A DNA stretch of 64,000 bases from Hyalangium sp. (GCF_045802625.1 NZ_JBJMQP010000096.1:37810-101809); one strand, 5' to 3'; shown: positions 18,956 through 23,080, numbered from the stretch's first letter. Notes: generated from the sequence alone by a model not told the origin. Made by a program: numbers and translations.

Positions 18956-20020
18956 TCAGCTGGCGGCGTTCGCCGGGGAGGCGGTCTCGGGCTCGGCCTT
19001 CTGGGCTGCTGGAGCCTTCTCCGCCTTCTCCGCCTTCTGCAGCAGCCCGTAGCGCTTGGCCGCGGACTCAAGGATGCGCCCCACGAGCTGGGTAAAGGAC
19101 ATGCCCTTCTCACGGGCTCCGAGCGCCAGCTCGCTCTTGTCCTCCAGATAGGGGTTCGGGTTCACCTCGAGGACGTACGGATCTCCAGCCTCCGAGATGC
19201 GGAGGTCGATGCGCGCGTAGTCCTGCAGCTTGAGCCCGCGGTAGGCCAGCAGGGCGGCCCGCTCCACGCGCTGGCGCAGCTCCGGCGTGATGTTGCGGGC
19301 GATGACGAGCTTGGGAGAGCCCTCCGTCTCCGGGCCGAACTTCACCTCCCGGTCGGAGATGGTCGGCTTGTTCTTGTCCCAGTTGCCGAAGTCCAGCTCG
19401 ACGATGGGCAGGATCTCCGGCATCTCCTTGGGGCCGATCACGCCCACGTACACCTCGCGGCCCTCGATGAACTCCTCCGCGAGCGCCTCGTCCTGCAGCT
19501 CCTTGCGGATCTCCTGCACCCGCCGCGTCAGCTCCTCCCAGGTGCGCACCAGCGACTTCTTCCCGATGCCAATCGAGGCGTCACTGCGCGACGGCTTGAC
19601 GATCAGCGGGAACTCGAGATCTCCATTGGTCTCCACGGTGACGCCGTCAAAGGTGGCGAAGTCCGCGGTGGGGATCTCGTGGTACTCCAGCAGCTGCTTG
19701 GTGAGGATCTTGTCCTGCGCCAGCAGCAGCCCCGCCGTCCCCGAGCCGGTGAACTTCACCCGCGCCATCTCCATCAGCGCCGCGACGTTCACCTCCATCC
19801 GGTAGTCCTCGGCGAACGTCTCGCAGAGGTTGAACACCAGGTCGCACTTCGAGCGGTCGATCTCCGTGAGGATGTCGAAGACGCGATCGCTCACGGCGAT
19901 GGTGGAGACCTCATGCCCCAGCTGCTTGAGGGACTCACCCACCTGGGTGGTGACGGGATCCACCGGCTCTCCGTCCGGCTGGTAATGCAGGATGGCGATC
20001 TTGAGAGGTGGTACCGGCAT
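18956..20020 (-). CDS. ATP-grasp enzyme, D-alanine-D-alanine ligase-like
   Basis: Blocks KILTKQLLEYHEIPTADF, FPLIVKPSRSDASIGI, EEFIEGREVYVGVIG and RIDLRISEAGDPYVLEVNPNPYL. The C-terminal tail is Lys/Ala-rich and low-complexity. Confidence 0.7.
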   Translation of the reverse strand: MPVPPLKIAILHYQPDGEPVDPVTTQVGESLKQLGHEVSTIAVSDRVFDILTEIDRSKCDLVFNLCETFAEDYRMEVNVAALMEMARVKFTGSGTAGLLLAQDKILTKQLLEYHEIPTADFATFDGVTVETNGDLEFPLIVKPSRSDASIGIGKKSLVRTWEELTRRVQEIRKELQDEALAEEFIEGREVYVGVIGPKEMPEILPIVELDFGNWDKNKPTISDREVKFGPETEGSPKLVIARNITPELRQRVERAALLAYRGLKLQDYARIDLRISEAGDPYVLEVNPNPYLEDKSELALGAREKGMSFTQLVGRILESAAKRYGLLQKAEKAEKAPAAQKAEPETASPANAAS

Positions 20021-20098
20021 GGCCCCTCAAGTGTAAGTCCTCGCCGCGCCCGGTGCATCCGGGCTCCCGAGCGCTGGCGCACTTTTCGTCCGCGCCGC

Positions 20099-21166
20099 TC
20101 AGTCCACGTCGAAGAAGCGGTCCGTGTAGAGGTAGTTCATCGCCAGCGCCGTGACCAGCGAGGTGAGCTTGGTGAGGTACTCGCGCGTCTTGTCCAGATG
20201 GATGGAGAGGCGCAGCGCGATGGCCCGCTCGAGCAGGTGGTCCACCAGCGCCACCACCACCGGCCGGCCCACGCCGCTGTACTGCGTCACGGACTGGATC
20301 AGCGACTGGCGCTCGGCGCGGATGAGCATCTCCGCGCTGGCCGGCGCGGTGTCCGGGGGCTCGAACAGCCCGAGCAGATCCTGATCCAGGTGCTCGCGCA
20401 GCTTCAGCTCCACGCGCTCCTCGAGCTGGCGCTGGCGGTAGTGATCGAGGACCGTCTCCTCCATGTCCTCCACGTCGAGGTCCCGCTCGGCCAGCTGCAC
20501 GAGCGGCGGCGTGCGGCCCACGCGCTTGATCACCTCGTCCATGTACTGGAGCTTCTTGAGCGCGCCCCAGCCCGCGTAGCGCTTGGTCCAGTCCAGCCCC
20601 GGCGTCAGCCACACCGCGAACGTCTCGGCGAAGTCCTCGTCCGGGTGCTTCTGCGCGTACCAGCCGGAGATGTGGACGACATATTTCCGGCTGAACGGCC
20701 GCGGCTTGTAGTTCTCGTTGTAGGGCTTGGAGTAGTCCCCGAAGAGCTTCCGCCACTCGTCCGTGTCATAGAGGCGGTAGGCGTAGTTGAAGGCGTGCCC
20801 GGCCTCGTGGCGCAGGTACATGAGGATCTCGCGCTCCGTCTCCGCGTCGCCGCTCAGCTCCGCCTCGATGGAGTGCAGCCGAGGATCCGCCAGGTAGAAC
20901 GGCAGCCCGATCACCGGCACGCCGGACGGGCAGCCCCACTGATCCGACAGGTAGCACTCTGGCAGGAAGGAGATGCCCTTGGCCTCCAGCTCGCTGTAGA
21001 GCTGCTGGATGAAGCGCTCCAGGGCCGTGCCCCTCAGGTGGAGCTTGAGATCCTTGATGCGGGCCTGGAGCAGCGCCTCGCGCTCGGGACGGCGGGGGGA
21101 GTCCGCCGCCTCATGCGGGTCTGCGAGGGTCTTCTCTCGGAAGGTGATCTGGGAGGGCGAAAGCAT
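20099..21166 (-). CDS. Putative zinc metallopeptidase (HEAGH motif; zincin-like, possibly Peptidase_Mx-type)
   Basis: HExxH motif HEAGHAF with a downstream Glu-containing block DEDFAETFAVW. GGGGA lies before ATG 21166. Same strand as the flanking ATP-grasp (79 bp away) and the Ser/Thr kinase (168 bp away). Confidence 0.5.
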   Translation of the reverse strand: MLSPSQITFREKTLADPHEAADSPRRPEREALLQARIKDLKLHLRGTALERFIQQLYSELEAKGISFLPECYLSDQWGCPSGVPVIGLPFYLADPRLHSIEAELSGDAETEREILMYLRHEAGHAFNYAYRLYDTDEWRKLFGDYSKPYNENYKPRPFSRKYVVHISGWYAQKHPDEDFAETFAVWLTPGLDWTKRYAGWGALKKLQYMDEVIKRVGRTPPLVQLAERDLDVEDMEETVLDHYRQRQLEERVELKLREHLDQDLLGLFEPPDTAPASAEMLIRAERQSLIQSVTQYSGVGRPVVVALVDHLLERAIALRLSIHLDKTREYLTKLTSLVTALAMNYLYTDRFFDVD

Positions 21167-21334
21167 CGGGTCCCCGGAAGGCCCCGGAGTCTAATGGCAG
21201 GGCCTGGGGGGTAAATTGGCTCGCTTCCTGCTGGGTGCAAACCCCTGGAACGACTGGACTCTATGGCCTCAAACGACCCCTGAAGGGGCCGTCCTGGGGC
21301 CTGGCAGGCGAGCAACCCGGTGGCTGGCGGGCGG

Positions 21335-23080
21335 CTACTCGAAGACGGACATGTCGTTGCCGCCGCCGTTGGGCTTGGGCGGCTTTTTGTTGCCCGGAGG
21401 CGGGCGGGAGATGGCCGGCAGCGCCACGTCCACCGGCATGGTGTCCCCGGAGACGGCGCTGAGATCGAGCGGGCGCTCCACGTCCTGGTAACCCGCGAGA
21501 TGGAAGGTGAGCTTGTGCTTCTGGTCTCGGGACAGCTGCAGGCTCATGGGCGTGGTGCCGATCTGCGAGCCACCGCCGTCGAGGATCGCGGCGCCTGGAG
21601 GCGTAGAGGAGAAGTTCACCGTGACCATCGCGTTGACGGTGGGCGCTGGAGGCTTCGTCACCTCCTGGGCGGGAGGCTTGGACGGGGGCGGCTTGGGCGG
21701 CTCGGTGCGAGGGACCTCGACCACCTGGGGCTGCTGAACCGGCGTCGGGGTTCCTCCGCCCTTGATGAAGATCACCGCGGCGCCCGCGGCGAGCAGGAAC
21801 AAGGGGATGCCGACCAGCGCCACCTTCTTGCCGGTGGACATGCCCTCGGCAGGCTCCGGCGCTGCGGCAGGCGGGAGCGGAGCGGGAGTCGGCGCGTGAG
21901 CCCGCTGAGACGCTCCACTGCCCGCGGGCCGGAGCCGCGCGCCCGAGGAGGCGCTCCCGGCGGCGCCCTTGGAGACGACGACGTTGGAGGGCAGCGAGCC
22001 GCGAGCGGGAGACGCGGCGGAAGGCCTCGAGGGCCGAGCGCTGCTGGCGCTGCCGGCTCCCTTGCGAGCGGCGACTCCGGAGACGCTGGGCCTGCTGCCG
22101 CTGCCAGGGCCTTCGCGTCCCGGGGTGCCACCCGAGGGCCGCGCGTCCAGCTGCTCGGGCGTGAGGTCCGCGACGGCGTCCAGCATCGCCTCGATGAACT
22201 CCTCGGCGGACTGGAAGCGATCCTCCTTCTCGCGTGCGAGGCCCTTCTGCATGAAGGCATCAACCGAGGCGGGCACCGGAGCGCCCTGGCGCTTGGTGTT
22301 CACCGCGGGCACCGTCTGGGTCAGCGCGGCGGTGAGCGCCTTGCGCACGGTGTTGGCGCCGTAGGGCGAGGTGCCCGTGAGGCAGAAGTAGAAGACGCCC
22401 GTGAGCGAGTAGAGATCGGAGCGCTGATCCACCACCTCGCCGCCGGCCTGCTCGGGAGGCATGTACTGCGGGGTGCCGAGCACCTGGCCGGTGGAGGTGA
22501 GCTGATCCTCCTCCTCCTGCTCCAGCGCCTTGACCAGGCCGAAGTCCAGCACCTTGACGAAGTCCTTCCCGTCGAGCTGCTGCACCATGATGTTGTGCGG
22601 CTTGAGGTCGCGGTGGACGGCGTTCTGCTCGTGCGCGTGGGCCAGCCCTCGCGCCGCCTGCTCCAGGACGTTGACGGCGCGCCGCAGGGACATGGGCCCG
22701 TCGCGCTTGACGAGCTCCTTGAGGCTGTCGCCCTCCAGGAGCTCCATCACGTAGTAGCAGGTGTTGTCCGGGGCGCGGCCGAAGTCGTAGATGGTGATGA
22801 CGTTCGGGTGGCGCAGGCGGCTGGCGACCTCGGCCTCGCGGCGGAAGCGCTCGAAGAAGGTGGGCGCGGCGGCCAGCGCCGGGTTCAGCGTCTTCACGGC
22901 CACCGGGCGCTGCACGCTGGTCTGCGTGGCGCGGAAGACCATGCCCATGCCACCCTGGCCGAGCACACTCTCGATCTTGTAGCGGCCATCCAGCACCTGG
23001 CCCAGCAAGGCCATGCTGGCTCCGCCGCAGAGGTGGTCAGGTCCGTCGGTGCTTCCACAATGGGGACAGGGGGAGGCCAT
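21335..23080 (-). CDS. Ser/Thr protein kinase with an N-terminal Cys cluster, a TM segment and a C-terminal beta-rich extracytoplasmic domain
   Basis: Hanks kinase motifs GQGGMGMVFRA, VAVK, HRDLKPHNIMV, DFG and TPQYMPPE. A CPHCGSTDGPDHLCGG zinc-ribbon-like N-terminus. A Pro/Ala-rich linker, the TM helix VALVGIPLFLLAAGAAVIFI and a C-terminal domain. The start is either ATG 23080 (MASPC...) or 23155. Confidence 0.75.
   Translation of the reverse strand: MASPCPHCGSTDGPDHLCGGASMALLGQVLDGRYKIESVLGQGGMGMVFRATQTSVQRPVAVKTLNPALAAAPTFFERFRREAEVASRLRHPNVITIYDFGRAPDNTCYYVMELLEGDSLKELVKRDGPMSLRRAVNVLEQAARGLAHAHEQNAVHRDLKPHNIMVQQLDGKDFVKVLDFGLVKALEQEEEDQLTSTGQVLGTPQYMPPEQAGGEVVDQRSDLYSLTGVFYFCLTGTSPYGANTVRKALTAALTQTVPAVNTKRQGAPVPASVDAFMQKGLAREKEDRFQSAEEFIEAMLDAVADLTPEQLDARPSGGTPGREGPGSGSRPSVSGVAARKGAGSASSARPSRPSAASPARGSLPSNVVVSKGAAGSASSGARLRPAGSGASQRAHAPTPAPLPPAAAPEPAEGMSTGKKVALVGIPLFLLAAGAAVIFIKGGGTPTPVQQPQVVEVPRTEPPKPPPSKPPAQEVTKPPAPTVNAMVTVNFSSTPPGAAILDGGGSQIGTTPMSLQLSRDQKHKLTFHLAGYQDVERPLDLSAVSGDTMPVDVALPAISRPPPGNKKPPKPNGGGNDMSVFE

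Follow-up and report, generated by a model that had tools for sequence, protein, structure and literature searches.

Pairs made up of an ATP-grasp ligase and a hydrolase underlie vancomycin resistance, carrier-protein lysine biosynthesis, ribosomal protein glutamylation and the tubulin code. In the known ligase/metallohydrolase pairs, namely VanA with VanX, LysX with LysK (in the LysW pathway), RimK with RimB, and TTL(L) with CCP, an ATP-dependent amide ligase is matched, by genetics or by function, with an amide hydrolase of the same pathway. Here we analyze a 64,000-nucleotide stretch of DNA from Hyalangium sp. (GCF_045802625.1 NZ_JBJMQP010000096.1:37810-101809; "the window" refers throughout to this whole stretch) that carries a putative pair of the same general kind: a gene for a zincin of the PF15887 (Peptidase_Mx) family and, directly downstream on the same strand, a gene for an ATP-grasp ligase of the D-alanine–D-alanine ligase (Ddl) clade. 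The window pair differs from the known ones in that its ligase is Ddl-like and does not belong to the RimK/LysX/TTL clade, in that its hydrolase is an MA-clan zincin whereas the known pairs use hydrolases of the VanX, M20, aspartyl or M14 types, and in that no gene for a carrier or a target is linked to it. (Residue numbers are those of the window proteins unless DdlB numbering is stated.)

A related arrangement is found within a single polypeptide in the cyanophycin synthetase CphA1, in which a cryptic metallopeptidase-like domain cuts the product into primers (PMC9262961). CphA1 is not homologous to the window proteins. Its metallopeptidase-like site, M16-like in origin, is of the inverted HxxEH/Cys kind, and CphA1 has an additional Mur-like ligase domain.

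The logic of joining an ATP-grasp ligase to a peptidase is well known; for the combination of a PF15887 zincin and a Ddl-clade paralogue we found no characterized member. We found no literature on this pair, although a mention in an earlier amidoligase survey is possible. With somewhat better than even confidence, we propose that the zincin and ligase genes form a two-gene chromosomal operon encoding a cytoplasmic zinc hydrolase and a paralogue of D-Ala-D-Ala ligase that act on one amide bond.

The zincin and ligase genes are adjacent across at least six phyla

When one genome per species was scanned with the zincin as anchor, 80 loci were returned, from Myxococcota, Acidobacteriota, Gemmatimonadota, Eisenbacteria, Limnocylindria (Chloroflexota), Omnitrophota, Victivallales and Akkermansia. 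An orthologue of the ligase lay directly downstream of the zincin gene, on the same strand, at 74 of these loci; three of the other six end at a contig edge, which leaves the ligase adjacent in 74 of the 77 loci that could be evaluated. This adjacency spans at least six phyla (Myxococcota, Acidobacteriota, Gemmatimonadota, Eisenbacteria, Chloroflexota and Omnitrophota). A second scan, anchored on the ligase, returned 80 metagenome loci, 74 of them with room for a neighbor, and a zincin gene adjoined the ligase gene in 66 of these 74, lying upstream on the same strand in 57 and convergent, tail to tail, in nine. Because these nine loci are convergent, the adjacency outlives both rearrangement and the loss of co-transcription. 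The two genes behave as a module that recurs in distant taxa and is recovered reciprocally from either member. The spacer between them has a median length of 19 bp in other genomes, and at nine loci, of the Gemmatimonadota type, their stop and start codons overlap by 4 bp.

The two proteins are also found as a natural fusion, P0197 (568 amino acids), in which the zincin domain is joined directly to a full-length ligase. Its zincin part is 46% identical, and its ligase part 39% identical, to the corresponding window protein, and three contigs, which come from different samples, carry its gene (among them L081, 4001-5707, and L082, 363-2069). P0197 lacks the helical C-terminal domain of the zincin, a domain that may normally dock the separate zincin and ligase; physical association of the two proteins is plausible. 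Taken together, the adjacency in genomes and in metagenomes, the overlaps and the fusion make it very likely that the zincin and ligase genes are functionally coupled. An initial annotation of this locus had placed the two genes, together with a Ser/Thr kinase gene upstream, in a three-gene block and had likened the pairing of ligase and metallopeptidase to tagging and untagging systems; the pairing is strongly supported by linkage (74/77 and 66/74 loci, and the fusion), but the three-gene block is not.

All-against-all clustering of open reading frames (ORFs) of at least 80 amino acids across 80 loci revealed no third conserved gene. The flanking genes are unrelated housekeeping genes whose family and strand differ by lineage, and at some loci they abut or overlap the pair. 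Because abutting neighbors leave no room for a small precursor gene, a system of the type that makes peptides synthesized on the ribosome and modified after translation (RiPPs) is argued against, and we set it aside. A defence system or mobile element was also rejected: neither the zincin nor the ligase matched any PADLOC defence model, and no homologue of either was found in plasmid and phage collections.

Two variants of the arrangement were observed. In one clade of convergent loci (L098, L105, L106, L128, L139, L143, L145 and L158) the zincin gene lies downstream of the ligase gene on the opposite strand; zincin identity in this clade is 39-42% in full-length matches and 33% in L128, where the match is truncated by the contig. 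On metagenome contig L110, the start of the ligase gene (ATP-grasp, 3980-4987) is overlapped by a gene for a DUF885 protein (2388-4004) with the motif HEAYPGHH, which stands in the place of the PF15887 zincin, as if a zincin of another, non-orthologous type had replaced it.

The zincin is a predicted cytoplasmic gluzincin with conserved catalytic residues

The zincin matched PF15887 over residues 108-187 with a score of 41.3 bits (E 1.6e-10), above the gathering threshold of 27 bits, and thereby falls in a peptidase family rather than a non-peptidase one; its scores against PF15890 (16 bits) and TIGR04549 (19 bits) were below threshold. PF15887 was present in all 120 zincin homologues among the matches listed. 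The window protein has homologues in Hyalangium gracile (93% identical) and H. minutum (92%), and the family comprises at least 8000 proteins in a 90%-clustered collection, or 1904 clusters at 50% identity, whose members are alike over their full length (~340 residues) down to ~33% identity. Likeness to PF15887 and PF15890 has its limits, since the Pfam match spans only part of the window protein and neither family has a characterized function. Moreover, members of these families (BACCAC_01431, PDB 4l7a; the SusD-associated TIGR04549) are exported lipoproteins, whereas no signal peptide or transmembrane segment was found in the window zincin. The zincin is therefore predicted to be cytoplasmic, which fits the need of an ATP-dependent partner.

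Conservation was assessed in 45 family members drawn from separate 50%-identity clusters and 32-48% identical to the window protein. W77, P89, R119, H120, E121, H124, F142, G143, D178, E181 and K205 are invariant in this set, Y170, H174, P175 and E177 are conserved in at least 90% of it, and the C-termini vary. The initial annotation had picked out an HExxH motif with a downstream Glu as the signature of a zincin. Because R119, H120, E121, H124, D178 and E181 are invariant, the HEAGH motif (residues 120-124) and the downstream HPDEDFAETFA are, as judged from these alignments, more than a chance occurrence. This combination of HExxH with conserved downstream acidic residues is that of MA-clan zincins and gluzincins; E177, D178 and E181 are the candidates for the third zinc ligand. 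Y170 lies seven residues before E177, a Y-x6-E spacing that we take to resemble that of lethal factor (LF), the Pro-Pro endopeptidases (PPEP) and MtfA.

A structure model of the zincin, with a predicted local distance difference test (pLDDT) score of 90.6, showed the MA-clan zincin fold, with its mixed beta-sheet, active-site helix and glutamate helix, and so bore out the zincin claim together with the invariant motif residues. Residues ~30-250 are modeled as an ATLF/MtfA-like gluzincin domain with its catalytic set intact, and residues ~250-355 as an all-helical C-terminal domain that gave non-specific matches only. The model resembles PPEP-2/3, anthrax LF (M34) and MtfA (M90). No Pfam match beyond PF15887 and PF15890 placed the zincin in M34 or M90 by sequence, and a search of PDB sequences, with the single sequence or with a profile, gave no match at E<0.01; the likeness to M34 and M90 appears, from the model, to hold at the level of fold only.

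The ligase is a Ddl-clade paralogue with probably different substrates

The ligase belongs to the ATP-grasp superfamily, with matches to PF07478 (Dala_Dala_lig_C; 103 bits) and PF02655 (33.9 bits). Its scores against all equivalog models are far under their cut-offs, including those for Ddl (NF002378, 138.6 bits against a cut-off of 243; TIGR01205, 128.8 against 245.65), for the Van ligases (at most 69 bits; cut-offs 495-775) and for RimK (TIGR00768, 42.3 bits against 143.4), which places it outside the RimK family. A profile built from 39 orthologues recovered Ddl/VanA-type ligases as the top matches in the PDB (E 1.6e-39 to ~1e-12), followed by weak matches to PurD/PurT-type enzymes, L-amino-acid ligase and biotin carboxylase; it recovered no structure of RimK, LysX or TTL. 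Thus the earlier description of the protein as a Ddl-like ATP-grasp enzyme with a Lys/Ala-rich tail was accurate, and, of the profiles suggested for checking it, the Ddl-like domain matched while the curated Ddl and RimK cut-offs were both missed.

With Ddl and VanA (EC 6.3.2.4 and relatives) the ligase shares a three-domain ATP-grasp architecture and the residues for ATP, Mg and the transition state: K104, K142, E182, K227, R270, D272, E285 and N287 are invariant in sets of 39 and 69 sequences and are, we presume, the counterparts of DdlB K97, K144, E180, K215, R255, D257, E270 and N272. By contrast, the residues that bind the substrates of Ddl are altered. The N-terminal GGxSxExEVS motif, which contains Ddl E15, is missing, and, in the DdlB numbering as we take it to be, S150 is replaced by Ala148, Y216 by Phe228, H63 by an invariant Glu67 and L282 by an invariant Glu297. 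R188, E208 and R274 are further charged residues that are invariant in the family. Because residues for D-Ala-D-Ala have been lost and invariant charged residues (E67, R188, E208, R274 and E297) gained, the substrates would differ from those of Ddl, and we consider the ligase to be a Ddl-clade paralogue that looks active and has a different, probably charged, substrate pair. The curated cut-offs and the altered substrate residues rule out a bona fide Ddl, and the annotation "D-alanine--D-alanine ligase" should not be transferred to this family. The genomic setting differs too, in that the window ligase adjoins a zincin gene whereas Ddl lies in a cell-division/murein cluster.

A Hyalangium sp. 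metagenome-assembled genome (MAG) encodes a protein with 100% identity to the window ligase. The Lys/Ala-rich tail of the window ligase (residues ~325-354, window 18956-19050), LLQKAEKAEKAPAAQKAEPE..., is not conserved. Ligases of Acidobacteriota, Eisenbacteria and some other groups have an insertion of 25-35 residues after the first beta-strand that is acidic and then strongly basic, as in PRKRKGQKKRKKKP (examples are L012, 9031-10077, and L066, 8989-10050). Those of Myxococcota are without this insertion and have variable C-terminal tails, Lys/Ala-rich or Lys/Glu-rich, and those of Gemmatimonadota have neither the insertion nor a Lys-rich tail.

Proposed function of the pair and competing explanations

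According to our proposal, the ligase would use the ATP-grasp mechanism to activate a carboxylate as an acyl-phosphate and would couple this with an amine, so that an amide or peptide bond forms. Its substrates would be amino-acid-like molecules other than D-Ala-D-Ala, and probably charged. The zincin, with a complete putative catalytic set consisting of HExxH, a downstream acidic ligand and a Tyr, would hydrolyze the bond made by the ligase or else a competing or precursor bond closely related to it. Together the two enzymes, which probably act as a physical complex, would control how much of one particular amide-linked product is present. Because of the Ddl ancestry of the ligase, and because no target or carrier gene is linked to the pair, we favor a small, dipeptide-like cytoplasmic molecule as the most likely product; an amino-acid tag on a protein would be less likely. 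We infer the catalytic activities, the shared bond, the class of substrate and the formation of a complex from the features described above.

Several observations weigh against this proposal. Our literature search found no characterized member of either family from which activities and substrates could be taken directly. The zincin stands alone at the only evaluable loci in the zincin-anchored genome set that lack an adjacent ligase (L018; L077, from Victivallales; and L078, an Akkermansia muciniphila MAG), and a small lineage (L135, L152, L161, L164 and L165) has the ligase with no zincin gene beside it. Because such solo loci exist, each protein seems able to function by itself. The Lys/Arg-rich insertions or tails of some ligases could point to a macromolecular target such as the ribosome or nucleic acid. 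The structure model of P0197 lends no support to an interface (predicted template-modeling score 0.55; pLDDT <50 in the ATP-grasp part). Finally, the E. coli DdlB numbering that we assume was cross-checked only on an alignment with the Ddl of Yersinia pestis.

The surroundings of the solo genes are of two kinds. The genes that follow the solo zincins in L077, L078 and L018 encode a glucuronate isomerase, an SMC/RecN-like ATPase or a TonB-dependent receptor. The solo-ligase lineage has a shared neighborhood of genes for an MFS_3 transporter, a SnoaL-like protein, a methyltransferase and CarD; the transporter might be a sign that a small-molecule product is exported.

Rather than making and breaking a small molecule, the pair might tag and untag a protein, as the initial annotation implied, with the ATP-grasp enzyme attaching a single amino acid or several, at a terminus or on a side chain, to some conserved protein of the cytoplasm and the zincin erasing them. 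There are precedents in RimK, which acts on ribosomal protein S6, and in TTL/TTLL, which act on tubulin and have CCP carboxypeptidases as erasers. A ligase and a metallohydrolase that share a tight operon, and a fusion, fit the roles of writer and eraser. Conserved genes for a precursor, carrier or transporter are lacking beside the pair, so that the target would have to be widespread and have its gene at another place. A C-terminal carboxylate, or acidic tags, could be held by the invariant R119 and K205 of the zincin, and the Lys/Arg-rich insertions or tails found on many ligases could dock on the ribosome or another polyanion. These segments are, however, lineage-specific and missing in Gemmatimonadota, and the ligase profile leads to Ddl/VanA, to PurD/PurT-type enzymes and to L-amino-acid ligases but not to RimK, LysX or TTL, the RimK model itself scoring 42 bits against a cut-off of 143. 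Nor does the zincin look like a LysW-like carrier, since zincin C-termini are not conserved. We regard tagging as unlikely. The CphA1 precedent, in which an ATP-grasp synthetase is joined to a primer-making metallopeptidase-like site (PMC9262961), suggests instead the non-ribosomal synthesis of an oligo- or poly-amino acid that the ligase would elongate and the zincin would trim or cut into primers. The fusion P0197 mirrors the CphA1 architecture, with an ATP-grasp part and a metallopeptidase-like site on one polypeptide, but there is no sequence similarity to CphA1, the ligase is a single Ddl-like ATP-grasp module with neither a Mur-ligase-like nor a second ligase domain, and the pair has no linked gene for a cyanophycinase, for an exporter or for storage; synthesis of such a polymer seems to us very improbable.

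Remodeling of cell-wall precursors, with the ligase acting as a true D-Ala-D-X ligase and the zincin as a VanX-like dipeptidase in the manner of VanA and VanX, would account for Ddl and VanA being the closest solved relatives of the ligase and for the change of Ddl Y216 to Phe, a substitution associated with depsipeptide-forming ligases. Against this stand the low scores of the ligase (139 bits against 243 for Ddl; at most 69 against 495-775 for Van), the loss of the E15 motif, the replacement of S150 by Ala and of L282 by an invariant Glu, a zincin fold of the HExxH MA clan and not of the VanX/LAS type, and the absence of vanH-, vanR- or vanS-like genes and of murein genes nearby, which together leave this explanation scarcely likely at all. 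The remaining alternative enlarges the unit instead of changing its chemistry: the membrane Ser/Thr kinase encoded upstream would regulate the pair or be co-transcribed with it. All three genes run in one direction, and the minus strand between them showed no terminator-like site. The order kinase-zincin-ligase recurs in Stigmatella (L083) and in the Myxococcota MAGs L003 and L004, and in another Myxococcota lineage a GAF histidine kinase gene lies upstream of the pair on the same strand, which suggests that a sensor is often found there. Yet the kinase orthologue is upstream of the pair only in these three loci besides the window; it is missing beside the pair in the Myxococcota loci L001, L002, L006, L007 and L008 (in L005 only the kinase C-terminus is matched, weakly, at 45 bits) and in all of the ~70 loci from other phyla, and the position is taken in other Myxococcota by an ABC-F gene, the GAF histidine kinase gene or unrelated genes. 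The gap of 168 bp between the kinase and zincin genes has room for a separate promoter and, because the window holds three Pkinase genes within 9 kb of one another, a kinase neighbor is expected by chance in this kinase-rich genome. We therefore hold a three-gene unit to be quite improbable; the synteny of the three genes outside this genome, which had been suggested as a check, extends to the kinase in those three loci only, and the kinase is, from comparison of loci, a local neighbor in the Hyalangium/Stigmatella lineage that lies outside the conserved unit.

A more ambitious reading would make the pair the writer and eraser of an undescribed reversible modification, working as a physical complex and widespread in soil phyla (Acidobacteriota, Gemmatimonadota, Myxococcota and Eisenbacteria). 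The Ddl-derived ligase would then add an amino acid or amine, probably basic, to a conserved cytoplasmic protein or metabolite, and the zincin would remove it; we consider this a doubtful prospect. Under our preferred reading, in which a zinc hydrolase and a Ddl paralogue act on one amide bond, two "putative" annotations become one concrete unit and a misleading association with a kinase is removed. The pair is chromosomal, strongly conserved and widespread in poorly studied, environmentally dominant phyla, and identification of its product would bring to light either a new metabolite, cytoplasmic and of the dipeptide type, or a protein modification that is likewise new.

Organization of the locus and neighboring genes

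The overall G+C content of the window is ~0.68, and because the window is GC-rich most of its long ORFs are spurious. Third-position G+C, however, is 0.89-0.95 in four consecutive minus-strand ORFs, those for the kinase, the zincin, the ligase and a GAF protein (Table 1), and the kinase, zincin and ligase ORFs are real genes. The three co-directional genes are thus as first described, and so is the first of the two gaps reported for them, of 168 bp; the second gap is 78 bp and not 79 bp. Within this 78-bp spacer, a Shine-Dalgarno-like element, GAGGGG, lies 5 nt upstream of the ATG of the ligase gene.

Table 1 Features of the zincin-ligase locus in the window.
Feature	Window coordinates	Strand	Remarks
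Hanks-type Ser/Thr kinase, upstream neighbor	21335-23080	-	Start is the ATG giving MASPCPHCG
Zincin, 355 amino acids, gene 1 of the conserved pair	20099-21166	-	PF15887 (Peptidase_Mx)
HExxH helix codons of the zincin, R119-H120-E121-A122-G123-H124	20795-20812	-	Read from sequence
"Glutamate helix" codons of the zincin, Y170-AQK-HPDEDFAETFA (residues 170-184)	20615-20659	-	Conserved residues
Spacer from zincin stop to ATP-grasp start, 78 bp	20021-20098	-	Read from sequence
ATP-grasp ligase, 354 amino acids, gene 2 of the conserved pair	18956-20020	-	Third-position G+C 0.92; Ddl-clade
Single-GAF protein, 163 amino acids, downstream neighbor	18290-18781	-	GAF_2, 35.5 bits

The kinase is of the Hanks type, with a 166-bit match to PF00069 (Pkinase) and the motifs HRDLKPHN and DFG. 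It has one predicted transmembrane segment, VALVGIPLFLLAAGAAVIFI, a weak match to PEGA at its C-terminus (17 bits) and an N-terminal CxxC...HxC that is kept in three of four orthologues, in agreement with its earlier description as a membrane Ser/Thr kinase with a zinc-ribbon-like N-terminus. In PADLOC it matches generic kinase models only. Upstream of the kinase gene, and transcribed divergently, lies a gene for an ABC-F ATPase.

Dense signaling neighborhoods are typical of myxobacteria, and the kinase gene is part of a signaling cluster (window 21335-23080, minus strand; 25291-28440, plus; 28463-29929, minus; 29968-31062, minus) that consists of three Hanks-type kinases within 9 kb, one of them of 1049 amino acids with TPR repeats, and then a CheB methylesterase/response regulator.

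The GAF gene is found downstream of the pair only in Stigmatella, and farther off in L004. As a partner of the pair it was rejected, the downstream proteins of ~165 amino acids in other Myxococcota being unrelated to it. Its Cys77, Cys87 and Cys111 are spaced by 10 and 24 residues, as we take the catalytic cysteines to be in free methionine-(R)-sulfoxide reductase (fRMsr/MsrC), and the GAF protein is probably an enzyme of redox repair rather than a partner in signaling.

Elsewhere in the window, an ORF of 439 amino acids (5763-7082, plus strand) encodes a second, orphan Ddl-like ATP-grasp protein that scores 34.8 bits against PF07478 and 70 bits against the NCBIfam Ddl model (cut-off 243) and is 24% identical to the ligase of the pair. 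It directly follows an MFS transporter gene (within the ORF at 3157-5988, plus strand), with no zincin gene nearby. Ordinary neighbors are a GDT1-family cation/proton antiporter gene (17655-18626, minus strand) and an Indigoidine_A-like gene of the pseudouridine-5'-phosphate glycosidase family (8283-9197, plus strand). Between these two, at 9224-16141 (plus strand), lies an ORF of 2305 amino acids that contains TPR repeats and, at its C-terminus, a CHAT (caspase-like) domain; the remainder matches nothing in Pfam.

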